This document shows positions 12,421 to 59,062 of a stretch of 64,000 nucleotides of DNA, in pieces. Each line of letters begins with the position of its first letter. The first letter of the stretch is position 1. The stretch comes from a bacterium. GTDB lineage: Bacteria > UBA8248. The stretch covers positions 2,496,001-2,560,000 of the forward strand of contig OZ244799.1 in NCBI GenBank assembly GCA_965219955.1. Reading direction: 5' to 3'. The position numbers and the translations under genes were made by a program. Below the pieces are notes generated by a model, which was not told where the DNA came from, ran no database searches, and worked only from the letters and a program-made list of their open reading frames with translations.

Positions 12421-13310
12421 AGACCGGAATTTTCTGGCGCCGTAAAACGGAGACCGTAGACCAGTACGGCGTGCCGGGACGCGGCAACAGCACGGCGATC
12501 AGCGTCGCAACCATCGTGCTGATCCTGGGCGGCTGGTGGGTCGCGACCCGGCTCGAACTGATCCGGCCGCTGTTCCTGCCCTCGCCCGAGATGGTCATCT
12601 CGAAATTCAACAAGATCGCGTGCACGAATTACTATTTCGAACAGTTGCTGGTTGCGGTCGGCGCCCGCGACGAGGCCACGGCCGTTTGCCACGGCTTCAG
12701 CGAACACGCCCTGCACGAGCACATTCTCTGGAGCCTCTACCGCGTTTTCGGCTCCTTCCTCCTTGCTGTAGTCACAGCGGTGCCCATCGGCATCTCCATG
12801 GGGATGAGCCGATACGCGCGCGGCGTATTCGACCCGCCGGTCGAGTTCTACCGTCCCATCCCGCCGCTCGCCTATCTGCCGCTGACCATCATCTGGTTCG
12901 GCATCGGGGAGTCCGGCAAGTTCTTCCTGATCTATCTGGCGTGCTTTGCGCCCATCGCCATCAACGCGCGCGCCGGCGTGCGCTCGGTGTCGGTCGAGCA
13001 GATACACGCGGCGTATTCGATGGGCGCGACGAGCCGGCAGGTGATCAGTCAGGTCGTGATCAAGGCGGCGCTGCCGGAGATCCTCACGGGAATGCGGGTC
13101 GCGATCGCCTTCGGCTGGACGACGCTGGTCGCCGCCGAGATGGTTGCGGCCAAGGCGGGGATAGGCGTCATGGTGCTGAACGCCGCCCGCTTCCTGGCGA
13201 CCGATATCGTGTTCCTGGGTATTTTGGTGATCGGAGCGGTCGCATTTGTTTTCGACCTTCTCATGCGGCGCATCGAAGTGGCGCTCGTCCCGTGGAAAGG
13301 CAAGGCCTGA
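12417..13310 (+). CDS. tauC: Taurine/sulfonate ABC transporter permease
   Basis: [38 protein letters not shown]; ATGA coupling to tauB. Confidence 0.88.
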
Positions 13311-13543
13311 CGGCGTTCCCGAATCGCAGGCGGCGGCCTTCGCCGCTGGGTGAACAGCAAGAAAAATTGGCCTGCCGGGGGTCGTGACGACGCTGCGGAA
13401 GGGATTGGCCGCCCCTGCGGAGAACCACCCTCCTCTCGAAAACCCCGTTCGCAAATCTTCTTTTCTCCTGTACTCTTTTTGAACGACCCGTCTGCTACGA
13501 AGAGAACCCGAAGCACCACACGAGGAACACGAGGAGACCCGAG

Positions 13544-47997: not shown

Positions 47998-49133
47998 TTG
48001 TCGAATACCTCCTGCGCCGCTGCGAGACCGCATCCTCTTTGGAGTGAATAGCCCAGATCGGCGAGGGTCGATTCCAGCGCGCCGACCGCCGCCAGCACGT
48101 CGGAGGAATCCACGTATCCCAAGTGCCCGATCCGGAAAATCCTGCCGCTCAAGGCGTCCTGGCCACCGGCGATGGTCACCCCGTGCGCGTCCTGCATCCT
48201 CAGGGGGATCGCCTTCCCGTCCACTCCCTCGGGCACGCAGACGGCGGTAACGGCCTCGCTCCTCGAGTCGCGGGGGAATATGTCAAGGCCCAGAGCCTCG
48301 ACGGCCGCCCCCGTCGCACGCGCAAGCCTCGCATGCCGCGCGAAGACGTTCTCCAGCCCCTCCTCGCGCATCATGTCGAGCGCGACAGCCAATCCCGCCA
48401 ACAGGGAAATCGCCGGTGTCCAGGCGGTGGTGTTCTTCATCTGGCTTTTCCGTTCGATCTCGAGGTCGAAGTAATATCGCGGCGAGGTCGATTCCGACGC
48501 GGCGCGCCAGGCCCGCTCGCTCAGCCAGACGAAAGCCAGCCCCGGCGGGAGCATGAGCGCCTTCTGGCTCCCCGTGATTACCACGTCGAGGTCCCATTCC
48601 TCGGTCTTGAGCTCGTACACGCCCAGGGCCGTGATGGCGTCCACCACCACGAGCGTATCGGGCGATCGCTCGCGGACGACCCTCGCGACGGCCCGCACGT
48701 CGTGCTTGGCGCCGGTGGAGGTTTCGCTCGCCTGCATCAGCAGGGCCTTGTGCCCTCCCCTTGCAAGGCGCGCTTCCAGGGCGCTCAAGTCGACCGAGCG
48801 GCCCCATTCCACCTCCAGGACGTCCGCCTCGACCCCGTATGCCGCGCAAAGCTCCGTCCAGCGTTCGCCGAACTTGCCGCCCTCGACGACGAGCGCGGTA
48901 TCGCCCGGAGAGAGCAGGTTCGCCACCGCCGCCTCCATGCCGCCCGTACCCGAAGCGGCGAGGGTGATGACGTCTCCGCTCGTCCGGAAGAGCCATTCCA
49001 GATCGCGCCGCGCTCCTTCGAAGTGCGCTTCGAACTCCCGCGTACGGTGGTGGATCAGGGGCCGCGCCATGGCTTCGAGCACCCGGTGGGGAACCGGCGT
49101 GGGACCGGGGGCCATGAGGTGATGCTTGTTCAT
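47994..49133 (-). CDS. Class V aminotransferase (alanine-glyoxylate type; likely phosphoserine aminotransferase role by context)
   Basis: PGPTPVP, HHRT, SGTGGME, ETSTG, DAIT, GSQKALMLPPG, FRIGHLG. Confidence 0.88.
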   Translation of the reverse strand: MNKHHLMAPGPTPVPHRVLEAMARPLIHHRTREFEAHFEGARRDLEWLFRTSGDVITLAASGTGGMEAAVANLLSPGDTALVVEGGKFGERWTELCAAYGVEADVLEVEWGRSVDLSALEARLARGGHKALLMQASETSTGAKHDVRAVARVVRERSPDTLVVVDAITALGVYELKTEEWDLDVVITGSQKALMLPPGLAFVWLSERAWRAASESTSPRYYFDLEIERKSQMKNTTAWTPAISLLAGLAVALDMMREEGLENVFARHARLARATGAAVEALGLDIFPRDSRSEAVTAVCVPEGVDGKAIPLRMQDAHGVTIAGGQDALSGRIFRIGHLGYVDSSDVLAAVGALESTLADLGYSLQRGCGLAAAQEVFDK

Positions 49134-49300
49134 TTTTCGCTCTTTCCCTGAAGTGAGTCGTTGCGGACGAACACGTGCCCATACGCCTCAAAGGATATAC
49201 CACTCCCCGCCGAACCCCTCAAGCGATATCGTCTGAAAAGCGGGCGGAGGTATGCAAATATGCGTCCCCGCACGGAGAGGGCGAACGCCGCCGTGCTTCC

Positions 49301-49330
49301 TTGCGCGCGCGGGGCGCCCCAGTCTATAAT
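49301..49330 (+). promoter_or_regulatory. Sigma70-like promoter
   Basis: TTGCGC-N18-TATAAT upstream of GGAGG SD and ATG49359. Confidence 0.5.
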
Positions 49331-49358
49331 GACTCGCTCTATACCGGAGGAACGGCGG

Positions 49359-49703
49359 ATGCCCGCATTCGACACGCTCAAGGCGACGAAACTGCTCAAG
49401 GCGTCGGGGTTCGAGGAGACCCAGGCGGAAGCCGTCGTGGCCACGGTGAGAGACGCCGTCTCGGACAACGTGGCCACAAAGGCCGACATGGGCGAACTGC
49501 GCGCTGAAATGGGCGCGTTGCGCGCCGAACTCAAGGCCGACATGGGCGAACTGCGCGCCGAATTCAAGGCCGACATGGGCGAACTGCGCGCCGAACTCAA
49601 GGCCGACATCGCCGAGTTGCGCGCGAGCATGTACCGCATGGTGTTGACCACCTCCCTGGCGGTCATCGGGGCGACCGTCTCCCTCGTCAAGCTGCTCCCA
49701 TAA
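49359..49703 (+). CDS. DUF1640/CCDC90-like coiled-coil membrane-anchored protein with 11-aa repeats
   Basis: FDTLK..K.L..SGF...QAEA, ATKAD, repeated KADMGELRAE(L/F), C-terminal TM. Confidence 0.8.
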   Translation: MPAFDTLKATKLLKASGFEETQAEAVVATVRDAVSDNVATKADMGELRAEMGALRAELKADMGELRAEFKADMGELRAELKADIAELRASMYRMVLTTSLAVIGATVSLVKLLP

Positions 49704-50017
49704 ACAAACGGGGCGATACCTCCGTTATTGACGCTCCATACTTGCACATGTAGATTTTTCGTCGTTATCCGCTACGCCCGTAGGCGGGCATGTATTTCAA
49801 GGCCCTTCACGGATCACCCGTGGGGGGCCTTTTCATTCCGGGCATGAGCCCACAGGGACGACCCTTATGGGTCGTCCTGCCCTCCGTGGTTGTCCTTCGT
49901 CTTCATCGGAACGAAGGCCTCCAACAGGACAGGCACGGAGGCCTGTCCCTACGGGCCGGAGGACGGACAACGCGAGGAGGGCCTGTCCCCGCGTTTCGTT
50001 GCATTCTCTCCACGCAC

Positions 50018-50047
50018 AAAAAAACCGGGGGGCCGAAGCCCCCCGGT
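50018..50047 (-). terminator. Terminator of porin copy 1
   Basis: On the minus strand ACCGGGGGGC-TTCG-GCCCCCCGGT followed by a T run. Confidence 0.9.
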
Positions 50048-50088
50048 CGTCGTCGCGTCAGTTGAGGACGCGAGCGTCCTTCATGTTG

Positions 50089-51318
50089 CTAGAAGATGTG
50101 GCGCAGCGTCCAGCCGACCGCCCAGCCGTCGTCGATCTCACCCTCGTCCACGCCTCTGCCGTAGTCGCCGCGCAGAATAACGGCGCCCACACCGCGAAGC
50201 TCGAGGTTCGAGTGGATCTTCCACTTGAAAGCGGCGTTGAGCTCAGTGCCGAATTCCTTCGCGTCCATCGTGTCCGCCGCGAGGGAAGGTTCGGCTGAAT
50301 TGTAGAGGGATACGCCGCCAGCCAGCGTCAGGGTCTTGCTGACCTTGAAGTCGGCCAGTCCCTCGATCACCGTCGCGCCGTTCAAAGCGCCCAGGTGCAC
50401 GCTTCTGATGCCGTTGCCCAGAGTCGTCCAGCGGCGCGAAGTCATGATGTGGCCGCCGAAGAACCAACCGGAACCGCCTTCCTGAGGCGTCCTGAAGCGG
50501 CCGTCTTCGCCTGCCTTCGTGCCGTCGTTGCCGGAGAGCATCGTGAGGTTGCCGCTGAGCTTCAGTTTGCCCAGGCTCGTGGAAGTCCTCACCAGAACGG
50601 CCCAACCCGAGAGCTCATCGCCGCTCGAGAGGTCACCTTCCTGGATGACGATGGAACCGTTCACGTTGAGGATGCCAACCTTGGTCTTGGCGTGGAGGCC
50701 CAAGAAGCTGTAGTCATAGCCGCCTTCCGCCGCGTCTCTCGAATTGGCCGCCCACGGCGTAACCGTGAGAGTCGGATTCACCTTGATGCCCACGCCGACG
50801 TAGTAGTCCGTCTTGTCATTGTTGTCGGGGCCGGTATCTTCGTTCGCCTTGGTCATGAACGCGCTGAGCGAGAGATTCTTGCTGAGCTTGCCGTAGATCG
50901 CAATGCCCGGCTCACGATGACGGCCGCCGCTGTCGTAGATTTCCTTGTCCGGCGAGAAGTAGTCCGTCCGACCCATGCGCATGCGAAGCGCGCTGCCCGG
51001 AACGGCGAAGTCGATCACCCAGCGGTTGACGCCGACCGTCTGCCGGCCGGGACCGATGGCGAAGCCGCCGTTCGCGCTTACGAACTCGGGTTCCCACACG
51101 GCCGTTACGGCGCCGCTTTTCGCCGTGAAGCGCGGGCGAATGAGCGCGTCCAGGTAATTTCTCTTGTCGTCTGCGTCATCGTCGCCGTCCGCATTGACGT
51201 TTTCGCTGGATCCACGCACCCGGAAGAAGCCGCTGAACTTGAGGTCGGCCGCGTACGAGGGCGCTACAAACGTCGCCAGGAGCGCCAGCGCAAATAGTGC
51301 TAACAGAAGTTTCCTCAT
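50089..51318 (-). CDS. Outer-membrane beta-barrel porin, paralog 1
   Basis: Signal peptide ending SYA; amphipathic strands; C-terminal Phe (WTLRHIF); paralog of 54874-56157. Confidence 0.8.
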   Translation of the reverse strand: MRKLLLALFALALLATFVAPSYAADLKFSGFFRVRGSSENVNADGDDDADDKRNYLDALIRPRFTAKSGAVTAVWEPEFVSANGGFAIGPGRQTVGVNRWVIDFAVPGSALRMRMGRTDYFSPDKEIYDSGGRHREPGIAIYGKLSKNLSLSAFMTKANEDTGPDNNDKTDYYVGVGIKVNPTLTVTPWAANSRDAAEGGYDYSFLGLHAKTKVGILNVNGSIVIQEGDLSSGDELSGWAVLVRTSTSLGKLKLSGNLTMLSGNDGTKAGEDGRFRTPQEGGSGWFFGGHIMTSRRWTTLGNGIRSVHLGALNGATVIEGLADFKVSKTLTLAGGVSLYNSAEPSLAADTMDAKEFGTELNAAFKWKIHSNLELRGVGAVILRGDYGRGVDEGEIDDGWAVGWTLRHIF

Positions 51319-51405
51319 GTGTATTTCTCCTCATCGAGGTTTCACAAAAAAATGTTGCCGTCTTCCTTCACATGTTCTATGTCGATGTTCTATGTCTTGG
51401 ATTTG

Positions 51406-51462
51406 TCAATTGTTTCTGCATCCGTGCTTCGTCGTCTGCAACAGGGCTTCTCGCTCTCGCAT
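51406..51462 (-). CDS. Candidate leader peptide MREREALLQTTKHGCRNN
   Basis: GAGGAGAGGGG SD; conserved frame in the paralogous leader 54747-54806. Confidence 0.45.
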   Translation of the reverse strand: MREREALLQTTKHGCRNN

Positions 51463-51580
51463 CACCCCCTCTCCTCAATGCTGCCCCGCACGTCGACAAG
51501 GTCCTATCGAGCGAACCGATATTTGTCGCTTGAATACTTTCCCATTGAAGAAAACCGTCATTTCATTCCCCATTTCCCAA

Positions 51581-51609
51581 AGAATAGAAAAGATGATCCT
51601 CTTTGTCAA
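51581..51609 (-). promoter_or_regulatory. Sigma70 promoter of porin copy 1
   Basis: TTGACA (51609-51604), N17, TATTCT (51586-51581). Confidence 0.7.
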
Positions 51610-51971
51610 CAAACAATCCCAAGGGAAATCCAAAAAAATCATTTCCTCAGAATTCGAATCTTCCCCTATCCTCCGGAGTGGGGCTAAAGGTTTAACAATC
51701 CTGAAATCAAGCCTTTACGAAAAATTTCGTGTCATAAAAAAACGACGTAAAATCTATCGCCCTGCCCAGGCCTTTGCATCCCGAGAAAAAATTTTTCGCT
51801 CACCGGGCGAAAAGGCGTCCAAAATAGGCCTTACGCCCCCTGAAAATCCGACCTGTATCCGTTCATCCGGCCTGCGATTCGGGCCGTCCGAGAAATCTTA
51901 TTCCCTGATCGTAGAAAAAAGAAGTGGCTTTTCCCGGCGGAGAACGGGCCGGAATCCTGCAGCCGACTTTC

Positions 51972-53144
51972 TCAGAATATATCTTCCGCGATACTCCCCG
52001 CAACCCGCTCCGCCGCCTCGTGCGCGGAATTGCGCGCCAGGTGCGCGTAACGCGCCGTGGTCTGCACGTGGGCGTGGCCAAGGAGCTTCGCGATGACGGG
52101 GAGCCCTTCTCCCAGCGCGAGCGCTCTCGAAGCGTAGGAATGGCGAAGGTCGTGGAGCCGCACGTCATCGAGACCCGCCCGCGCGCGGACGGGCCGCCAG
52201 ACGTGATCGAGGCTGCTCAGGCGCGCGCCCGGCTTCCTGCCGGAAATGACCCAGGGATTCCCCTCAACCCGGGGGAGGGCCGCCAGGAGCGCGACCGCCT
52301 GCGGCGGAAGCGGGACGACCCGCGCGCCCGTCTTGGAATCCGGCAGCCTCAGCTCACCCTCGTCCAGCGCCACGTCCTCCCAGCGGAGGGTGAGTATTTC
52401 GGACTTACGGCACCCGGTCAGCATCAGCAGGCGTATGGCGGCCAGGGCGGACGCAGGCGCCCCGCCCCGGTTCTCCATTTCTTCCAGAACGGATCCCAGG
52501 CGCGTAAACTCCTCATCCGTCAGGAACCGCTCCCTCTTGCGTTCGGGGTATTTCACGATCAGGCGGCAGGGGTTGCACCCCTCGGGCGCCAGGCCCCAGC
52601 TCTCGGCCAGCCTGTACATCGCATAGAGGATCCGGACGACCATGTTCGCAACAGCAGGCGTCTCGCAAAGGCCCTGGTGCAGTTCCGCCACCTGCGCCCG
52701 CTCCACCGCCATGATCGGCAGTTCGCCCAAAGCGGGCACGATGTGCTTCCGCACCACCGCCCTGGTCTTCGCGACGGTGCTCGGCTTACAGCGCACCGAG
52801 ACGTATTCGGTGAGATACCGCTCGGCGAGCGCCGCCACCCTGGGCCCGCCCGCGGGCTTCAGCCGCTTCGGGATTGCCTCCTCGCCCGCCTTGATACGGG
52901 CGATGATGAGCGCCGCCCTTTGGCGCGCCTGCTCGGCGCCGATCACGCCGTGGCGGCCCACCGCCACCCGCCTGGGCCCTCCCGGCCCCCGCGCCTGGGC
53001 GACGTAGACTTTTGAGCCGGTGGGATAGACCCTGACGCCGAAGCCTGTGAGATCCCGGTCCCAGAACACCGTATCCTTTTGAACCACAAGCTTCCCGACC
53101 GCCCGGTTCGAGAGCGTTTTCATAACGGGCTTCGCCGTTTTCAC
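51972..53144 (-). CDS. Tyrosine integrase (P4-like, N-terminal arm-binding domain), copy B
   Basis: FWDRDLTGFGVRV; TGCRKSE, DSKTG, HDLRHSYAS, LLGH, TTARY; GTGA overlap with the upstream stop. Confidence 0.92.
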   Translation of the reverse strand: MKTAKPVMKTLSNRAVGKLVVQKDTVFWDRDLTGFGVRVYPTGSKVYVAQARGPGGPRRVAVGRHGVIGAEQARQRAALIIARIKAGEEAIPKRLKPAGGPRVAALAERYLTEYVSVRCKPSTVAKTRAVVRKHIVPALGELPIMAVERAQVAELHQGLCETPAVANMVVRILYAMYRLAESWGLAPEGCNPCRLIVKYPERKRERFLTDEEFTRLGSVLEEMENRGGAPASALAAIRLLMLTGCRKSEILTLRWEDVALDEGELRLPDSKTGARVVPLPPQAVALLAALPRVEGNPWVISGRKPGARLSSLDHVWRPVRARAGLDDVRLHDLRHSYASRALALGEGLPVIAKLLGHAHVQTTARYAHLARNSAHEAAERVAGSIAEDIF

Positions 53145-54319
53145 TCGAGGTTCCCGTTCGTCAGGTGGGCGCCTATGCTCCCCCCCACCCGGGTGGCCGC
53201 CTCCTTCTCGGCCTTGAGCATCAGGTGCGTGTAGCGCGCCGTCGTCGTTACCGTCGCGTGTCCCAGGAGCTTGCCAATCGTGTAGAGGCTCTCGCCGAGC
53301 GCCAGAGCCCTTGACGCATAGGAGTGTCTCAGGTCGTGGAGCCGCAGGTCGGAGAGTCCCGCCCGCTCCCGGACAGGCCGCCAGTAGTAGTGAAGATCCG
53401 TAAGGTTCTTTCCCGGCTTCTGGCCGATGACCACCCATGGGTTGTCCGGTTGCCGGGGCAGCTTGTCGAGAAGCCCCCGCACGGGATTCGTCAGCGGAAC
53501 CATGCGGGGACCCGTCTTGGCGTCCCTGAGCCTGAGATCACCCGCCGTGCGGTCCACGTCGTCCCATTTGAGGCTCAGTATCTCGCTCCTCCGGCACCCG
53601 GTCAGCATGAGCAGCCTGATCGCCGTGATCGCAGGCGGCCAGATGGAGCCCGCCGCCTCGGCGTCTTTGAGCGACCGGCCCAGGCGACGGTATTCCTCGG
53701 ATGTCAGGAACCGCTCGCGCGGGCGCGTCCTGTAGAGCGTTAGTCTTCTGCACGGGTTCCGCCCGGGCGGGACCAGGCCCCACGCCTCGGCCAGGTTGAA
53801 CATCCTCGAGAGGAGATGGATCGACGTGTTGACCCGGCTCGGCGTATGGCGGAGGCGGTGCTGAAACGCGGTGAGTTCCGCCCGTCCGATCCGGGCCAGC
53901 GCCATCCCGCCCAGGACCGGCAGGACGTGTTTGTCCAGTATGGTGCGGTATTCCACGACGGTGCGCGGCTTCAGGTGCCTTTCCACGTAAACGCGCATGA
54001 AGCGCTCGGCAACCGCCGCCAGGGTGGGTTCCTCCACGGGCGGCTCAAGCCCGGGGTATTCGCCCCGCTTGATGCGGTCGATGACGAGGGCGGCCTGCTT
54101 TCTTGCCTCCCCGGTCGACAACGCCCCGTGCCGGCCTAAAGTAACGCGTTTTATCCCCCCGGGCCCGCGGGATTGCACCACGTAGGATTTCCTGCCCGCA
54201 GAGTGGACGCGCACCCCGAAGCCGGCCAGGTCCCGATCCCAGAAGAGGGTGTCCCGGTTCTTGGTTTTGAGCGCATCGACAGCGCGCTTGGTGAGCCTGA
54301 ACTCACTCCTTCTGGGCAT
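53141..54319 (-). CDS. Tyrosine integrase (P4-like, N-terminal arm-binding domain), copy A
   Basis: FWDRDLAGFGVRV; TGCRRSE, DAKTG, HDLRHSYAS, LLGH, TTARY; start MPRRSEF. Confidence 0.92.
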   Translation of the reverse strand: MPRRSEFRLTKRAVDALKTKNRDTLFWDRDLAGFGVRVHSAGRKSYVVQSRGPGGIKRVTLGRHGALSTGEARKQAALVIDRIKRGEYPGLEPPVEEPTLAAVAERFMRVYVERHLKPRTVVEYRTILDKHVLPVLGGMALARIGRAELTAFQHRLRHTPSRVNTSIHLLSRMFNLAEAWGLVPPGRNPCRRLTLYRTRPRERFLTSEEYRRLGRSLKDAEAAGSIWPPAITAIRLLMLTGCRRSEILSLKWDDVDRTAGDLRLRDAKTGPRMVPLTNPVRGLLDKLPRQPDNPWVVIGQKPGKNLTDLHYYWRPVRERAGLSDLRLHDLRHSYASRALALGESLYTIGKLLGHATVTTTARYTHLMLKAEKEAATRVGGSIGAHLTNGNLE

Positions 54320-54346
54320 GGCCCCCCTCGCTGGGCATGGCCCCTT

Positions 54347-54500
54347 CGCTCGACATGTCATCAAAACGCATATCAGCGACATCAGTCGAGAGCGCGTTTA
54401 CGCATGAACAGGCACGCTCTCTCACGCTCGACATGTCATCAAAACGCATATCAGCGGCATCGAATGTGAGCGTATTCAAGCACAAACACGGCAGGCGCGC
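54347..54500. repeat. Tandem 78-bp unit upstream of the integrases (37-bp near-identical core)
   Basis: CGCTCGACATGTCATCAAAACGCATATCAGCG(A/G)CATC at 54347-54383 and 54425-54461; the following segments are also alignable. Confidence 0.85.
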
Positions 54501-54746
54501 AAGAGGCGACGATAAGGAAAATATCGAATTAAAGCAAATAATAACAAATCTTTACATTGCATGAGTACGCTCAGTCGCAACATCCCCGGAGTGATCAGTT
54601 CCTTTCAGTATTACATCTATTCTTTGAGAGATAAAGCACGGAACGGCTGTTTTTTTCAGATGGGGAATTGTCTGCATAAGCGGCAAATACCGGTTCGCAA
54701 GATGGAACCTTGTCGGCGTACGGGGCGGTATGGAGGAGAGGGGGTG

Positions 54747-54806
54747 ATGCGGGAGCGGGAAGTCCTGTCGCAGACGACGAAGTACGGATGCAGCGACACC
54801 GATTAA
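54747..54806 (+). CDS. Candidate leader peptide MREREVLSQTTKYGCSDTD
   Basis: GGAGGAGAGGGG SD; paralog of 51406-51462. Confidence 0.45.
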   Translation: MREREVLSQTTKYGCSDTD

Positions 54807-54873
54807 ACCAGACACAGAACACGAAGGAAGACGGCAACATTTTTTAGTGAAACCTCAATGAGGAGAAATACAC

Positions 54874-56157
54874 ATGAGGAAACTTCTGTTAGCACTATTC
54901 GCGATGGCGCTCGTCGTGGCGTTCACCGCGCCCTCGTACGCGGCCGACCTCAAGTACAGCGGCTTCTTCCGGGTGCGTGGATCCAGCGAAAACGTCGAAG
55001 GTGACGACGGAGACAAGAAAAATTATCTGGACGCGCTCATCCGACCGCGCTTCACCGCGAAGAGCGGCGCCGTCACGGCCACATATGAACTCGACTTCTC
55101 GTCGTCGTATACTGGAAAACTTGACGATGATAACGAATTAGCGACTAATACGCATGCTGGCGCGAACGGCGGATTCGGCACCGCTGGTCGGCACAATGTG
55201 GGTACGAACCGCTGGGTGATCGACTTCGCCGTTCCGGGCAGCGCGCTCCGCGTTCGCATGGGCCGGACGGACTACTTCTCGCCGGACAAGGAAATCTTCG
55301 ACAGCGGCGGTAAGCACCGTTTGCCGGGCATTGCGCTTTACGGCAAGTTGAGCAAGAACATGTCGCTCAGCGCGTTCATGACCAAATCGAAAGAAGACGC
55401 GGGTGGCAGCAACGATGACAAGACGGATTACTACGTCGGCATGGGCATCAAGGTGAACCCGACGCTCACGCTCACGCCGTGGGCGGCCAACACCAGAGAC
55501 GCTGCGGCCGGCGGCTATGACTACAGCTTCCTCGGTTTCCACGCCAAGACCAAGGTGGGCATCCTGAACGTAAACGGTTCTATCGTCATCCAAGAGGGTG
55601 ACCTCTCAGTCAAGGACGGAGTCCAAAAGGAACTCTCGGGTTGGGCCGTACTGCTCAGGACTTCCACCAGCCTGGGCAAACTGAAGCTGAGCGGAAACCT
55701 CACCATGCTCTCCGGCGATGACGGCTCCAAGGCCGGCGAGGACGGCAGCTTCCAGACGCCTCGGGGAGGTAGTTCCGGCTGGTTCGTCGGCGGCCACATC
55801 ATGAGTTCGCGCCGCTGGACGACTCTTGGCAACAGCATCAGAGACAGAGAACTGAAGAAAATGAACGGCGCGGTCGTGATCGAGGGACTGGCCGACTTCA
55901 AGGTCAGCAAAACTCTGACGCTGGCTGGCGGCGTATCCCTTTATAATTCCGCCGAACCTTCCCTCGCGCCGGACACGATGGACGCGAAGGAATTCGGCAC
56001 CGAGCTCAACGCCGCTTTCAAGTGGAAGATCCACTCGAACCTCGAGCTTCGCGGTGTGGGCGCCGTTATTCTGCGCGGCGACTACGGCAGAAAAGTTGAC
56101 GAGGGTGAGATCGACGACGGCTGGGCGGTCGGCTGGACGCTGCGCCACATCTTCTAG
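54874..56157 (+). CDS. Outer-membrane beta-barrel porin, paralog 2
   Basis: Signal peptide; C-terminal RHIF; differs from copy 1 mainly in polar loop-like segments. Confidence 0.8.
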   Translation: MRKLLLALFAMALVVAFTAPSYAADLKYSGFFRVRGSSENVEGDDGDKKNYLDALIRPRFTAKSGAVTATYELDFSSSYTGKLDDDNELATNTHAGANGGFGTAGRHNVGTNRWVIDFAVPGSALRVRMGRTDYFSPDKEIFDSGGKHRLPGIALYGKLSKNMSLSAFMTKSKEDAGGSNDDKTDYYVGMGIKVNPTLTLTPWAANTRDAAAGGYDYSFLGFHAKTKVGILNVNGSIVIQEGDLSVKDGVQKELSGWAVLLRTSTSLGKLKLSGNLTMLSGDDGSKAGEDGSFQTPRGGSSGWFVGGHIMSSRRWTTLGNSIRDRELKKMNGAVVIEGLADFKVSKTLTLAGGVSLYNSAEPSLAPDTMDAKEFGTELNAAFKWKIHSNLELRGVGAVILRGDYGRKVDEGEIDDGWAVGWTLRHIF

Positions 56158-56198
56158 CAGCATGATGGACGCTCGCGTCCTCACCTGACGCGACGACG

Positions 56199-56228
56199 AC
56201 CGGGGGGCTTCGGCCCCCCGGTTTTTTT
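56199..56228 (+). terminator. Terminator of porin copy 2
   Basis: ACCGGGGGGC-TTCG-GCCCCCCGGT-TTTTTT, same as copy 1. Confidence 0.9.
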
Positions 56229-56336
56229 GTGCGTGGATGTATGCGCGGCGTCCTCGCGACTTTTTTCTATTATCGCTCCCCCCTTAGGATCATTCTCTCT
56301 TCGACCGGAAATGAATGTTTGTGCAGGGGGCGCAAT

Positions 56337-56527
56337 GGGGCTGTTGAAAAAGCCTGATGCGGGATCGGCGGCAAGGAGGTTCACGCGGCGCAGACGTGAT
56401 GGTTTTGTAGGGACAGGCCTCCGTGCCTGTCCTGCTCTTCGTGGTTGTCCTTCGTCAGGACAGGCACGGAGGCCTGTCCCTACGGCGAACAATCTCGAAG
56501 GTCGGACAGGACTTTTTCAACAACCCC
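56337..56527. mobile_element. MITE with GGGGCTGTTGAAAAAG / CTTTTTCAACAACCCC ends carrying a GTAG REP doublet
   Basis: TIRs as at 17262-17533; interior GTAGGGACAGGCCTCCGTGCCTGTCCT...AGGACAGGCACGGAGGCCTGTCCCTAC. Confidence 0.75.
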
Positions 56528-56923
56528 GCCCTCTCGAATCGACACGCATTTCCCCGCAATTGCCGTCATTCCCAAATCCGCGGACTGCGCTATCGTGCGC
56601 GCGACGCGGGGAAGGGGTTTTTCCCCGGCGGATTGAGACGCACGGAGAGGAAGCTTTCGCATGGGATGCAGTGATGGAACGGGGAAGAATTACGAAAATG
56701 GATTCGGGAACGGCGCGGAAATAAAAATAATGATATTTTCTGTAAAATTCGATAAATTCAGGGGGTTTTTCGATAAATTCCTGAAATTCACTTCCCGCTT
56801 AACGGTTTGTAATACAAAGGGTTATCATATAAATATGAGCGTCGTGCACTCAGATAAGGCGGTGAAAAAAGTTTTCGGCGCCCCCGCATTTGCCCGCGCC
56901 GGGAGCCGGCGGCGCAAAGAACG

Positions 56924-58840
56924 CTATTCCCTGATCTTGTAGAAGAAAAGCTGGCTCTTCGCGCCGACCAACGGTCTCGAACTCGTCGTCGCCACCACGA
57001 GATCGTCGTAGCCGTCGTTGTCCGCGTCGCCGAAGGTGAAATCCACGATCCCCCGGCCCAGTTTTCTCGAGCGCCAGGTCTCGGTCAAACCGCTGCCGTC
57101 CCAGAGCAGGCTCGCGATCTGCCCGCTCGAAACGCCCAGGCCCGGCGCAATGGAGGCAACGTATTCGTTGCGGATCACCAGAACCTCATCCACCCCGTCC
57201 CTGTCGACGTCTTCAACCAGCACGCGCGAGCGTATGGGGAGATCCGGTGTATGAACCCTGTCACCGGTGTTTTCCGTATTGGCCAGGGAGAAGAATCTAT
57301 GGACGGGCGCGCCGTAGGTTTCAGAGCTCGAGTAGATATCCTGGCCGCTCCTCGAGAACACCCTCAGCCTGTCGTCCTTCCCGACCTCGATGACTTCCTG
57401 CGAGCCGTCCCTGTTGAGGTCCCACAAGCCGAAGCCCAGTATCGTCAAATCCGGCGGAAGCGCATAAGGGGCGGCGGGCGCGAGTTTCCCCCCCGACCAG
57501 CGATAGCTGCGGATGGGGCCGTCGAAAGCGCTCTCGATCCCTTCACTCTGCCCCAGAAGCAGATAGGCTTCCGAGCCAGGAATCTTCTTGCCCTTCTCGG
57601 GCCGCCGCACCCGTATCAGGCGATAAAAAGTCCTGTCGTTCCGGACGAGGGGCGTGAACTTCCCGCCCTTGAACTGCAGGATCATCGAGAACAACTCGTT
57701 CGAGCGATAAGAGGCGAGGTAGAACTCGGGCGCGCCGTCTCCGTTCATGTCGGCGACGTCGAGCCAGCGGAAGTCGTTCGCCGCCCCGCCGTCGAAGCGG
57801 GCGACCTCGCGCATCCGGTTCTCCTCGAAGCGGTTGACGATGACCTCGGTCGGCGTGATGAGAACGACTTCGTTTTTCCCGTCCCCGTCCACGTCCGCCA
57901 CGGACAGCCCCCGGAATACGGCCTTGTCGAACGAGTAGCTTTTCTGGCCGCCTCCTCTGTTTGGTACGCCCTCGCGGGCGAGCACGAAATTCTCGTTCGC
58001 GGGTCCTGCGCGCGTCTCGCCGCCGCCTCGCTTGAGTTCCTGCACCGTGGGCGGGCCCTGTTCGAAGGGCAGTTCATCCGCAATGGCCACGGCCTTGAAG
58101 AGTTCTTCCTTCGTGGTGAGGGACAAAAGGCGGGTGGAGAGAATCTTCTTCCCCCGGATTTCGCGGAGCTCGTTCTCGAGCGCCATGTCGCTCCGCACCT
58201 GGTTTCGCAGGCGAATCGGATTCTCTTTTTCAAGAATTTCATCGGTGGCGACACCCGTCTCGAGGAGCCATACCTGGAGCCTGTCCACGTCGTATACGTC
58301 GAAGCGCCCGCTCCTCAGGAGCTGGCGTCCGAGTTCCCTCGTGAGCGTCTCCATGCTGACGGCTTCTTTCGTCTGATTGACGAAAGGCAGTATCGCCAGG
58401 CGAATTTTCGAGGCGGACATGCGCACCGTGTCCTTGACGCGCGGCGAGAGTTGGCCGCCCGGCGCAAGGCGGACAAGACGCGCGATGGAGAATTTCTCCC
58501 GCACCTCGACGACCTCGATCTCGCCTACCTCCTCTTCCAGCTTGCCGAGAACGACGCCCGTCGTCGGGTGGCGAAACGGCGCGCCCTCGCGGTAGACGCT
58601 CAACTTGACGCCCTTGACCACCTCATCCTTCTCGCCGAGGCTCAAGTAGAGATCCGCCCCTCTGACGGCGACCACCGCGCCGCGCAGATTCGGGAATCTC
58701 TGGTGCAGCTTTTCGCTGATGAGACCGAGGGCCTTGCGGTAGTCGTTCTCCTGGGCGTGGGTCGAGCCGCCGGATGCGCAGAGGACAATCATGAAGGCCA
58801 GCAGGAAGGCCGGCGCCTTCTTAAGGAGGTGAGAGAACAT
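56924..58840 (-). CDS. Secreted FG-GAP/VCBS-repeat protein
   Basis: Signal peptide; DVDGDGKNE, DMNGDGAPE, DLNRDGSQE, DVDRDGVDE, DADNDGYDD repeats. Confidence 0.85.
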   Translation of the reverse strand: MFSHLLKKAPAFLLAFMIVLCASGGSTHAQENDYRKALGLISEKLHQRFPNLRGAVVAVRGADLYLSLGEKDEVVKGVKLSVYREGAPFRHPTTGVVLGKLEEEVGEIEVVEVREKFSIARLVRLAPGGQLSPRVKDTVRMSASKIRLAILPFVNQTKEAVSMETLTRELGRQLLRSGRFDVYDVDRLQVWLLETGVATDEILEKENPIRLRNQVRSDMALENELREIRGKKILSTRLLSLTTKEELFKAVAIADELPFEQGPPTVQELKRGGGETRAGPANENFVLAREGVPNRGGGQKSYSFDKAVFRGLSVADVDGDGKNEVVLITPTEVIVNRFEENRMREVARFDGGAANDFRWLDVADMNGDGAPEFYLASYRSNELFSMILQFKGGKFTPLVRNDRTFYRLIRVRRPEKGKKIPGSEAYLLLGQSEGIESAFDGPIRSYRWSGGKLAPAAPYALPPDLTILGFGLWDLNRDGSQEVIEVGKDDRLRVFSRSGQDIYSSSETYGAPVHRFFSLANTENTGDRVHTPDLPIRSRVLVEDVDRDGVDEVLVIRNEYVASIAPGLGVSSGQIASLLWDGSGLTETWRSRKLGRGIVDFTFGDADNDGYDDLVVATTSSRPLVGAKSQLFFYKIRE

Positions 58841-59062
58841 GAAAAACCCCATATCAGTAACGTGTTTTAGAGACTCCGGTCGAGCCGCCAGCGCTCTGAA
58901 GCAGAGCATGGCCCCGGATAATCAATCAGCCGTTGTATGATATCATGATTTCGAAGACAGAAAGCCCCAAACACCCTCAAATATACCGCGTAAGAAGCAG
59001 AAAGCAAATTTATTCAGGCCGTTCGGAAAGCCGGTCCGTCCAGGCGCAGGCTGCGTTTCGCC

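Follow-up and report, generated by a model that had tools for sequence, protein, structure and literature searches.

P4-like integrases usually occur one per element, with a tRNA or tmRNA as target and a Xis-type directionality factor; the question raised by the window, a stretch of 64,000 nucleotides of bacterial DNA, is what two such genes in immediate succession do at a single locus. The GTG start codon of intB lies over the TGA stop codon of intA in a shared GTGA (Table 1). Alignment of the two proteins gave 53% identity across 377 residues, and R243, K268, H328, R331, H354 and Y363 (intA numbering) were present in IntA and IntB alike. Each protein matched the Pfam models Arm-DNA-bind_3 (PF13356, arm domain; 42.4 and 33.9 bits, cut-off 27), Phage_int_SAM_3 (PF14659, SAM-like core-binding domain; 31.9 and 31.8 bits, cut-off 22.6) and Phage_integrase (PF00589, catalytic domain; 74 and 84 bits, cut-off 27.1) above the curated cut-offs. 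With the full catalytic set and the arm and core domains, both belong to the arm-type (P4-like) tyrosine recombinases, and scores of 61-63 bits against cut-offs of 330-335 for the NCBIfam XerC/XerD models (TIGR02224, TIGR02225) gave no membership there. The IntDes subgroup was also considered and rejected, as the shifted arginine and the His-to-Tyr change described for it (PMC8138268) are absent from IntA and IntB. No tRNA or tmRNA gene was found across the whole 64-kb window, and no excisionase among 11 small ORFs in and beside the insert described below, all of which were without a Pfam hit at E ≤ 0.001. The original prediction had described a same-strand pair of clearly diverged paralogs of roughly 390 residues with a GTGA overlap, the R-K-H-R-H-Y set and the N-terminal arm domain in both, and no tRNA or excisionase nearby, all of which was confirmed.

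Table 1. Position of the features of the integrase-porin locus (numbering of the window).
Feature	Position	Strand	Description
intA	54319..53141	-	First gene of the pair; arm-type tyrosine integrase, 392 aa; ORF
intB	53144..51972	-	Paralogous arm-type tyrosine integrase, 390 aa; ORF
Left flanking direct repeat (attL-like)	51899..51924		FG-GAP pseudo-3' end; shares 12 identical nt with the right copy
Right flanking direct repeat (attR-like)	56925..56950		Genuine 3' end of the FG-GAP coding sequence: last codons and part of the stop codon
FG-GAP / LpoB-like lipoprotein gene	56924..58909	-	Insertion target is its 3' end; Pfam FG-GAP_3, FG-GAP, LpoB
MITE-like dispersed repeat	56540..56897		Inside the insert; ends 27 nt from the right att repeat
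Segment V, candidate invertible	51589..54615		3,027 bp, between the inner ends of the inverted repeat
Left inverted-repeat arm	49925..51588	-	porL 50089..51318 (409 aa), 270-nt leader, -10 box, terminator hairpin
Right inverted-repeat arm	54616..56434	+	porR 54874..56157 (427 aa), leader, -10 box, terminator hairpin 56198-56223
porL promoter, complete (predicted)	51581..51609	-	-35 TTGACA 51609-51604, 17-nt spacer, -10 TATTCT 51586-51581
porR -10 box TCTATTCTTTGAG	54616..54628	+	Without -35 box; end of the integrase module at the -35 place
intA-upstream module end	54320..54615	-	Promoter-like region, conserved leader motif; outer end 54615 is the attL-like junction

A search for tandem homologous pairs, suggested earlier as a check, covered 80 related loci. 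In 76 of these, A is followed by a B gene in the same orientation, and contig ends account for three of the other four; the genome itself contains six colinear copies of the pair. In a tree of 75 A and 75 B sequences the two formed separate clades (support 98 each), as had been proposed for a heteromeric enzyme, and A-A and B-B distances were correlated with r = 0.897, a degree of co-divergence reached by none of 999 permutations. All six catalytic residues were retained in 75/75 A and 75/75 B sequences, and dN/dS within the clade of the window's pair was 0.23-0.38 for A and 0.14-0.38 for B. The two genes overlap by 4 nt in 49 of the 76 pairs and are separated by a gap of at most 27 nt in 26 of the remaining 27; for one of the 76 no start codon was found. 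Judged by the titles of the database records, the pair is kept across several phyla, and no third conserved gene, small genes included, was detected among the neighbours of 86 loci. A tblastn search of the PLSDB plasmids gave no close relatives (best identity 44%). Separate clades together with co-divergence fit the suggestion of a heteromeric two-subunit recombinase, so that intA and intB, as far as comparison of their sequences can tell, would encode two subunits of one conserved recombination module. In the literature on paired or tandem integrases (articles without their supplementary tables) we found no description of such a pair.

As a gene for a TrwC relaxase lies within 8 kb of the pair in about a third of the loci (28/86), the pair is normally the integration module of conjugative elements; a coupling protein was encoded nearby in 8/86. 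Its normal place is the left end of conjugative or mobilisable integrative elements. A sister copy at genome position 3691437-3727200 belongs to an element of ~35.8 kb that interrupts a MITE; the left junction of this element is found 227 nt upstream of A, and a direct repeat with a corresponding empty site was found for this element as well as for the insert of the window. The expectation that P4-like integrases are single and sit at tRNA genes is sound for such integrases in general and fails here: the genes are paired in 76/80 loci, the targets seen for the paired integrases are the 3' end of a protein gene (FG-GAP) and a MITE, and the A-B pair thus departs from the usual habit of a single integrase with tRNA or tmRNA target and Xis. 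These targets also bear on the outcome named by the original prediction as contrary to its reading, namely that the genes are a recent local duplication or that they are unrelated integrases, each acting at an ordinary tRNA att site elsewhere. The single point in its favour is that intA and intB are paralogs, and we consider it hardly credible: the A/B split precedes the diversification of all 75 sampled pairs and therefore contradicts a local duplication, as do the co-divergence and the pairing in 76/80 loci; the pair recurs in records titled as several phyla; and neither a tRNA gene in the window nor a tRNA among the known targets was seen.

Relatives with an empty site define the extent of the insert in the window as 51899-56936 (5.03 kb). 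Homology with the empty loci ends at 51888 and restarts at 56925, and the empty sites in four genomes (G018, G002, G017 and G008) contain a single copy of the flanking repeat; by eye, the similarity of the left copy extends over ~55-60 nt. The insert comprises intA, intB, porR, which is a further porin gene in the opposite orientation to the resident porL, and a MITE-like repeat. Hence the pair is not devoid of a passenger gene, as had been stated, and the notion of a minimal two-gene element without cargo had to be given up, since the insert also ends elsewhere than proposed. The boundary repeat put forward earlier (51668-51680 / 54582-54593) is a 12/13 match (E value of about 7 in a comparison of both ~630-nt upstream regions), and its left copy falls within DNA that the empty sites of the relatives share (homology to 51888). 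Being a chance-level match with one copy in ancestral DNA, it is not a real boundary; the true flanking repeat is 51899-51924 / 56925-56950. Occupancy of the site changes at least three times on a tree of the adjacent SerA-aminotransferase DNA, where occupied G012 is sister to empty G002 and occupied G005 to empty G003 (both 100/99 support). The integrase genes of G000 are ~94% identical in nucleotide sequence to those of G016 or G012, and the neighbouring housekeeping DNA is 88-91% identical. Around a translocated copy in G014 no direct repeats were found, only REP-like hairpins, and an Rfam scan of 49000-57500 gave only sub-threshold miRNA-like hits on a REP hairpin.

BLAST with the MITE-like repeat gave 59 hits across the genome, the window copy among them, and the contig depth of the repeat was very high; its 25-nt terminal motif had 86 genome matches with up to five mismatches. 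The motif CGCATTTCCCCGCATTTGCCGTCAT, considered as an arm site, turned out to be the end of this dispersed repeat, with 86 genome matches, and is not specific for the pair. Lying close to the right att repeat, the MITE-like repeat may have crippled excision. This position is one of several features that would suit a decaying relic, that is, a pair left from a larger conjugative element which has lost its cargo and is inactive at this locus. ORF and Pfam analysis found no relaxase or transfer gene in the 5.03-kb insert, unlike the 28/86 related loci; a tandem duplication is present in the intA leader (54347-54410 / 54425-54488, copies of 64 nt spaced 78 nt apart); and the P6 copy of the pair in the same genome has a frameshifted intA. 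Nevertheless, we regard a relic as quite improbable, because both ORFs of the window are intact with all catalytic residues kept, dN/dS against the orthologues in G016, G012 and G014 is 0.25-0.38, and a three-part architecture is conserved in at least seven genomes.

The integrase pair lies between two divergent porin paralogs of 80% identity; for porR, weak matches below the cut-off were obtained with Porin_4, SlpA_C and the NCBIfam model DESULF_POR1. Together with their leaders and terminators the porin genes form inverted arms of 1.7-1.8 kb which are 72-100% complementary, and both porin ORFs are full length in seven genomes (G000, G011, G016, G012, G013, G014 and G031). A consensus scan together with conservation predicts a complete promoter for porL, the best consensus match in 51250-57000 (10/12), which straddles the inner end of the repeat so that its -35 box would lie inside the segment between the arms and its -10 box inside the arm. 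TTGACA-17-TATTCT or a variant was present upstream of all 13 listed resident or single porins (11 exact), those of G007 and G001 having kept TTGACA with a changed -10 box. All six intA-adjacent porins keep the -10 box, with the end of the integrase module replacing the -35 box. As the junction between module and porR thus lies inside the porin promoter, porR would retain only the -10 box and the leader. This junction was found in 5/86 loci overall, all of the P1 clade; both integrase sub-lineages have it precisely in the spacer that separates the -35 from the -10 box, and a complete promoter follows intB in 5/6 loci of the clade.

On the integrase side of the junction, the intA-upstream region is conserved among the six pairs of the genome. 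It measures 296 nt, or 218 nt once the 78-nt duplication is discounted, and the latter value agrees with the left end of related elements at about -215 to -227. By eye, the junction beside intA occupies the attL position of the family, 39 vs 36 nt from a shared CGACTG motif. An origin of the porR junction by capture through imprecise excision, or by simple insertion into a porin promoter, was rejected, as neither reproduced the observed order and orientation of the parts. A single match of the porR -10/leader 22-mer in metagenome contigs, within a recombinase-like ORF on an unrelated low-GC contig, was attributed to chance. Concerning the porins themselves, intA-adjacent and resident genes belong to one common allele pool. 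Within a given genome the two signal peptides hardly differ, and the tree shows the alleles intermingled. In this genus the porin body varies strongly, both from genome to genome and from population to population.

Besides the two integrase genes, Segment V comprises the intA-upstream region, the left att repeat, 300 bp of ancestral DNA from upstream of the porin and the -35 box. Its arrangement is that of a fimS-type element, with inverted arms ending at 51588 and 54616, a predicted -35 box in the segment and a predicted -10 box in each arm. Since the only -35 box rides on the segment, inversion of the segment would change the porin that is expressed. The orthologous segment was found in both orientations in a sister lineage, with colinear flanks: G013 has the -35 box attached to the aminotransferase-side porin, G031 to the FG-GAP-side one. 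Homologous recombination between the long inverted porin arms could suffice for this flip, the integrases not being required. The lineage of the window has one orientation in all six carrier genomes (G000, G011, G016, G012, G005 and G032), and contigs from three studies bridge the junctions in the same orientation as the window. Among the joints listed in Logan contigs of four runs, which are blind to rare forms, none was at 51899/56936, 51588 or 54616; the other listed joints had sides of under 31 nt and came from paralogs. At the two proposed crossover sites the segment-side DNA is unlike (3/12 positions, by eye).

From the conserved pairing, the clean insert, the split promoter and the two orientations, we give about an even chance to the explanation that a two-subunit integrase has been co-opted into a porin-allele switch. 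These arm-type (P4-like) integrases are an old pair, encoded together, which would make up one recombination module; the window has a member of the sub-lineage that is associated with the major porin locus. The 5.03-kb insert at the FG-GAP 3' end brought in the pair along with the second porin allele porR. IntA and IntB would act as a heterotetramer, one half-site each in the manner of XerC/XerD, and would recombine the attL-like junction 54615/54616 with an inverted attB-like site at 51588/51589 in the spacer of the porL promoter. Segment V would then flip, the -35 box would move from porL to porR, and the porin allele would be switched; excision of the whole insert by the same pair, via the flanking direct repeats, may also occur. 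Counted against the switch are the single orientation in the lineage of the window, the unlike crossover flanks, the MITE-like repeat near the right att repeat and the lack of an excisionase.

Some of these points would be expected if the locus is a plain integrated mini-island, in which the pair inserted an element of 5 kb at the 3' end of the FG-GAP gene. On this view porR would be carried along as a passenger or kept as a silent spare, with gene conversion between it and porL; the inversion in G031 would be an incidental, RecA-dependent event between the long inverted repeats, and the integrases would have no part in porin expression. Such a mini-island is possible, though on the whole we think it rather unlikely. 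It would account for the clean insert with its direct repeat and empty sites in relatives, the patchy occupancy and the uniform orientation in 6/6 genomes; near-identical signal peptides per genome with alleles mixed on the tree are what gene conversion gives, and arms of 1.7-1.8 kb with 72-100% identity are long enough for homologous recombination. It does not lead one to expect a junction placed exactly between -35 and -10 in both integrase sub-lineages or a complete promoter at the intB end in 5/6 loci, and an intact -35-less porin in seven genomes is hard to explain if it is never expressed.

A different assignment of roles had been anticipated in the original prediction, which proposed a pair working in opposite directions like FimB/FimE. 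Its idea of inversion gained support insofar as the integrases and the only -35 box lie between inverted arms, with both orientations in the sister lineage; the anatomy differs from that of fim. As a mechanism, such a division of labour would mean that no mixed complex forms, that A and B each drive one direction, and that one paralog takes the place of the missing excisionase. It gains from the absence of an excisionase-like ORF in the insert and of a small gene conserved across the neighbours of the family, from the full catalytic set in both paralogs, and from the fim arrangement itself, in which two recombinase genes likewise lie beside or inside an invertible promoter segment. We judge it improbable, as translational coupling (49/76 pairs) and strict co-divergence suggest a 1:1 complex and as FimB and FimE are short recombinases that are not known to carry arm domains.

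A close model for the two-subunit module is XerC/XerD, which act on an asymmetric core as one heterotetramer; each of the two proteins carries out one pair of strand exchanges. Like these, IntA and IntB are two paralogous tyrosine recombinases with full active sites, and co-inheritance and co-divergence argue for their pairing. They differ in that IntA and IntB each carry an N-terminal arm domain, which the Xer proteins lack, in the overlap of their genes in one operon, and in residing in mobile elements instead of serving dif. At fimS of E. coli, FimB and FimE are two paralogous tyrosine recombinases beside a short invertible segment that carries the promoter for a surface structure. The locus of the window shares with it the two paralogous recombinases and a short segment with predicted promoter function for a surface protein. 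Here, however, the recombinases are arm-type integrases of ~390 aa whose genes are part of the segment, the moving part of the promoter would be its -35 half alone, the two alternative flanking genes would give allele A vs allele B instead of ON vs OFF, and both orientations are known between two sister-lineage genomes, not within one population. In the sap locus of Campylobacter fetus, two S-layer gene homologues of opposite orientation enclose an invertible segment with a single promoter, and the inverted repeat consists of the conserved 5' ends of these genes; inversion there is RecA-dependent, and the segment is not known to hold a dedicated recombinase. One promoter between two inverted, partly identical surface-protein genes is common to both, whereas the window has a two-integrase operon in the segment and a junction at the att-like position of an integrase family. 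Systems related to fim-type promoter inversion are also described in PMC6083910 and PMC5903667.

Compared with P4-like island and ICE integrases, the pair has the same domains, direct repeats at target 3' ends, clean empty sites and linkage to relaxase and coupling protein, and it differs in the doubling of the integrase (76/80 loci), the non-tRNA targets and the lack of any Xis found. Where ICE surveys refer to elements bearing two or more integrases, they treat them as probable composites (PMC5587801). Several tyrosine recombinases that are encoded in a translationally coupled operon and needed together are described for the SEs (IntA, Tfp, IntB and Srap; PMC10214605). According to the same source, Tn554 (TnpA, TnpB and TnpC), SEs, GInts and RITs have either one large and one ordinary recombinase or three of them, plus TnpC, Tfp, Srap or GinD. 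More than one tyrosine recombinase per translationally coupled operon is thus shared with these, and the present pair differs in consisting of two equal-sized arm-type paralogs (390-392 aa) with no further conserved partner at 86 loci. The bipartite BIM modules were dismissed as a parallel, being described as one recombinase with an unrelated protein (PMC3414803).

The arm-type integrases of phages and ICEs are textbook single-protein homotetramers that work with Xis. If our interpretation holds, diverged, co-evolving and translationally coupled paralogs would be a natural heteromeric arm-type integrase, and the pair could reveal how half-site specificity and the order of strand exchange are split between subunits. 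A wider version, again drawn from sequence comparison, can be put forward only tentatively and is in our view doubtful: IntA/IntB would be an obligate heterotetrameric arm-type integrase of conjugative elements across several phyla, its labour divided in the way of XerCD, one sub-lineage of which has been domesticated as a self-encoded -35 flip-switch between two porin alleles, and the 5-kb island would still be excisable and move spare alleles between species. For the host, the porin locus would represent a route of domestication by which the integrase of a mobile element is turned into a gene switch, with an att junction within a promoter so that one recombination event swaps which surface-protein allele has the complete promoter. 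A mobile and switchable spare porin would then offer the organism a direct escape route from phages or other enemies that recognise porins.

The two integrase genes are real open reading frames: intB begins at a GTG that overlaps the terminating TGA of intA, both products match the Pfam families Arm-DNA-bind_3, Phage_int_SAM_3 and Phage_integrase above the curated cut-offs, the two are 53% identical, and no tRNA or tmRNA gene was detected in the 64-kb window. The original prediction of two overlapping integrases without a tRNA nearby is therefore borne out and, by domain content, IntA and IntB are arm-type (P4-like) integrases. It had missed that the pair is directly flanked by two porin-like genes transcribed away from each other, the resident porL and the inverted porR.

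Features of the integrase-porin locus (window coordinates)
Feature	Position	Strand	Length	Description
intA	54319..53141	minus	392 aa	open reading frame
intB	53144..51972	minus	390 aa	open reading frame
porL	50089..51318	minus		porin-like gene
porR	54874..56157	plus		porin-like gene
Flanking direct repeat	51899-51924 and 56925-56950			outer 12 nt identical between the copies
Insert	51899-56936		~5.03 kb	intB, intA, intA-upstream region, porR with leader and terminator, MITE-like repeat
MITE-like dispersed repeat	56540-56897		~350 bp	terminal inverted repeats of the type CGCATTTCCCCGCATTTGCCGTCAT
Segment V	51589-54615		3,027 bp	sole -35 box, ancestral upstream DNA (300 bp), left att repeat, both integrase genes

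The window's genome (G000; 4.28 Mb, one contig) carries six colinear pairs of the two paralog types, A and B, and a seventh, distant pair (P7); its other A copies are 63-71% identical to intA, the other B copies 67-72% to intB, and A against B ~50-54%. Relatives were scanned with one genome per species (266 relatives; record titles mostly only 'bacterium', the others Nitrospinota, Alpha- and Gammaproteobacteria, Thiotrichales, Acidobacteriota and Gemmatimonadetes), and 76 of the best 80 loci have a B-type gene behind the A-type one in the same orientation; of the other four, three are contig ends, leaving L086 as the sole real exception. Of 76 pairs, 49 have a 4-nt overlap between the end of A and the beginning of B, and the remaining 27 have a gap of at most 27 nt, apart from one in which no start codon was found. 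The 80 loci and the six of the window's genome make 86, 75 of them yielding two complete proteins, with all six catalytic residues retained in 75/75 A and 75/75 B. When these 150 proteins and the distant pair were placed in a FastTree tree, A and B fell on opposite sides of one branch (support 98), and A-A and B-B distances were correlated (r = 0.897, reached by 0 of 999 permutations). The separate clades, a check proposed together with the pair, the co-divergence and the constant gene order mark the pair as an old conserved unit, not a recent local duplication. Among 51 genomes sampled across the phylum, 18 had A-type genes (E <= 1e-130), at 1-11 copies per genome: 16/23 in the window's own genus, 0/19 in other genera of the family, 0/2 in two other families of the order and 2/7 in another family of the class. 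One of the six pairs, P6, is decaying, its intA (genome C1:2734889-2736053, L015) being split by a frameshift near 2735845 and its intB being intact.

A TrwC relaxase homologue was found within 8 kb of the pair in 28/86 loci and a coupling protein in 8/86, and all neighbour families seen in at least nine loci, the relaxase included, lie downstream of B. Beside the intA-upstream end, other integrase copies aside, porins alone recur, limited to the window's sub-lineage. P3, just past the window end, has TrwC, a TrwB-type coupling protein and TraG_N behind it, and P4 has HU, TrwC and SSB. Comparison with the empty P4 site of the closest relative, G011, delimits an element of ~35.8 kb (genome 3691437-3727200) seated in the interior of a MITE-like repeat, with ~12 nt in common between its junctions and the left junction 227 nt upstream of A. 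In G002 and G012, multi-copy relatives likewise start sharply ~215 nt upstream of A and continue at least 7 kb past B. These neighbours and element ends indicate that the A-B family provides conjugative or mobilisable elements with their integration module, the predicted att junction lying just upstream of intA. P3 (genome C1:2561366-2563713; L012:1366-3710) lies 11 kb from the window's pair in opposite orientation, and ~94 kb of extra DNA relative to G014 (2561143-2655086) also holds P5 among IS256, IS110, a serine recombinase and a reverse transcriptase. Insertions of ~1.4-3 kb directly after intB (L066:10237-10352 and 13292-13407; also L013, which is P4) are flanked by a 60-130-bp repeat of the intB 3' end, which seems to be a hot spot for other small elements.

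In four genomes of the same genus (G018, G002, G017 and G008) the order is SerA, aminotransferase, single porin and FG-GAP gene, and their homology to the window ends at 51888 and restarts at 56925, with just 55 bp between in G018. Twelve genomes checked, these four and G003, G014, G004, G006, G007, G015, G001 and G009, are empty at this place, as is G034. The FG-GAP coding sequence has its true end in the right copy of the flanking direct repeat. This repeat is single at all four fully read empty sites (those of the same four genomes), and in G016 and G012 its left copy is followed by DNA that at empty sites comes after the FG-GAP gene. The homology breaks and the junction repeat therefore define the ~5.03-kb insert, and these limits replace the boundary repeat first proposed at 51668-51680 and 54582-54593; the claim of an element without cargo falls as well, as porR and the MITE-like repeat lie inside the same insert. 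On a tree of the adjacent SerA-aminotransferase DNA (19 genomes, IQ-TREE; G010 entered as assumed empty) occupancy is patchy, occupied G012 being sister to empty G002 and occupied G005 to empty G003 (both 100/99), and well-supported branches force at least three changes. The integrase genes of G000 and G016 or G012 are ~94% identical in nucleotides (dS 0.10-0.14) and the neighbouring housekeeping DNA 88-91%, which, with the patchy occupancy, fits an element that moved, or was precisely lost, after the species split. The MITE-like repeat recurs at ~59-86 further places in the genome, its copies often being inverted motif pairs ~220-230 bp apart, and several P2-like elements of G002 and G012 have left flanks that resemble it. 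In G012 (C2:1066842-1072267) the FG-GAP gene is 1.6 Mb away from the integrase-porin block and adjoins another porin and a fragment matching window 54347-55075 (intA-upstream region and porR 5' end), which points to a large rearrangement that broke within the element. In G013 (L032:3202-14417), 12 kb with a HepT/MNT toxin-antitoxin pair, a ResIII helicase fragment and YAcAr and DUF4326 genes separate the intA-side porin from the FG-GAP gene; the latter two genes also occur upstream of P7.

The best sigma-70-like match within 51250-57000 is on the minus strand, with TTGACA at 51609-51604, a 17-nt spacer and TATTCT at 51586-51581. The motif is found upstream of the resident porins of G000, G011, G016, G012, G013 and G014 and of the single porins of five genomes (the four named empty ones and G004), with variants in G007 and G001, and from consensus and conservation we infer that it is the porin promoter. 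Upstream homology of porL and porR extends 270 nt from the start codons to 51588 and 54616, just upstream of the -10 box, and all six intA-side porins of the former six genomes retain -10 box and leader, the end of the integrase module replacing the -35 box. A complete promoter follows intB in 5/6 loci of the window's sub-lineage, the exception being a translocated copy in G014 with an inserted IS66 transposase and a DruA-like gene. The module-porin junction occurs in 5/86 loci, all of this sub-lineage, 278-297 nt before the intA start; in the window the distance is 296 nt, or 218 nt once a 78-nt tandem duplication is left out, which is where members of the family usually have their left end. 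At this distance the junction with porR looks attL-like, and the corresponding position in the intact porL promoter resembles an inverted, unoccupied target.

The two porins are 80% identical and, with leaders and terminators, form inverted-repeat arms of ~1.7-1.8 kb. Both are full-length in G000, G011, G016, G012, G013, G014 and G031, and their signal peptides are nearly identical inside one genome. The intA-side porins form no clade, each being closest to the resident or single porin of another genome (G016 with G006 and G013 with G008, for example; support 100 each). For the middle of porR (55380-55787) there was no matching contig in two other populations (other studies, runs X1 and X2), where the integrases are ~98-99% alike; the porin body varies between populations and the 5' and 3' ends are retained. 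Intact reading frames, mixed tree, shared signal peptides and variable porR middle together indicate, at the sequence level, that the alleles of this highly variable porin are interchangeable. A coiled-coil ORF (49161..49703; weak CCDC90-like match), located between porL and the aminotransferase gene, contains a 33-nt tandem repeat in four copies (49449-49624; first spacing 54 nt), and CCDC-like matches at that place vary in number among relatives. Downstream of both porins lies a perfect 28-nt palindromic REP-like hairpin pair (56407-56483 and 49925-49952) with extreme contig depth in all four runs (up to ~8,000) and sub-threshold miRNA-like Rfam matches.

Segment V is thus flanked by inverted arms that each carry a -10 box, a leader and a porin gene, and its inversion would complete the porR promoter and break that of porL. 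One such event is present in the comparative data: G013 and G031 share a sister lineage of the pair (A 94.6%, B 95.9% identical), their SerA-aminotransferase flanks are 92% identical and their aminotransferase-side porins orthologous (88%), and the segment is inverted relative to the flanks, the TTGACA box being joined to the aminotransferase-side porin in G013 and to the FG-GAP-side porin in G031, whose other porin is joined to the intA-upstream end. The FimB/FimE-like inversion considered at the outset is therefore plausible, but all six carriers of the window's lineage (G000, G011, G016, G012, G005 and G032) have the same orientation, as have junction-spanning contigs from three studies. 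Moreover, homologous recombination between long inverted repeats could alone explain a single evolutionary flip, the segment-side DNA of the two proposed sites is dissimilar, and an excisionase was not found. With these points against it, we give a porin switch about an even chance and a plain integrated island about a third of the weight, the remainder falling to variants. Of the original interpretation, the paired unit stands and inversion stays plausible; its view of cargo and boundaries does not.

IntA and IntB fall outside the XerC and XerD families and outside the IntDes subgroup. Tn554, SEs, GInts and RITs need extra proteins or unequal recombinases, which the A-B pair does not fit; in its putative heteromeric operation the pair would come closest to XerC/XerD, two active paralogs at one site. 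In an ICE survey, elements with at least two integrases appear as probable composites only (PMC5587801). Literature searches on paired or tandem integrases turned up no arm-type integrases described as an obligate pair, though supplementary tables of these papers might list such pairs. The putative switch at this locus also resembles the fim switch and the Campylobacter fetus sap promoter inversion. A small island here brings together an arm-type integrase that is doubled by nature and a possible self-encoded switch that would alternate between two porin alleles by way of a split promoter.
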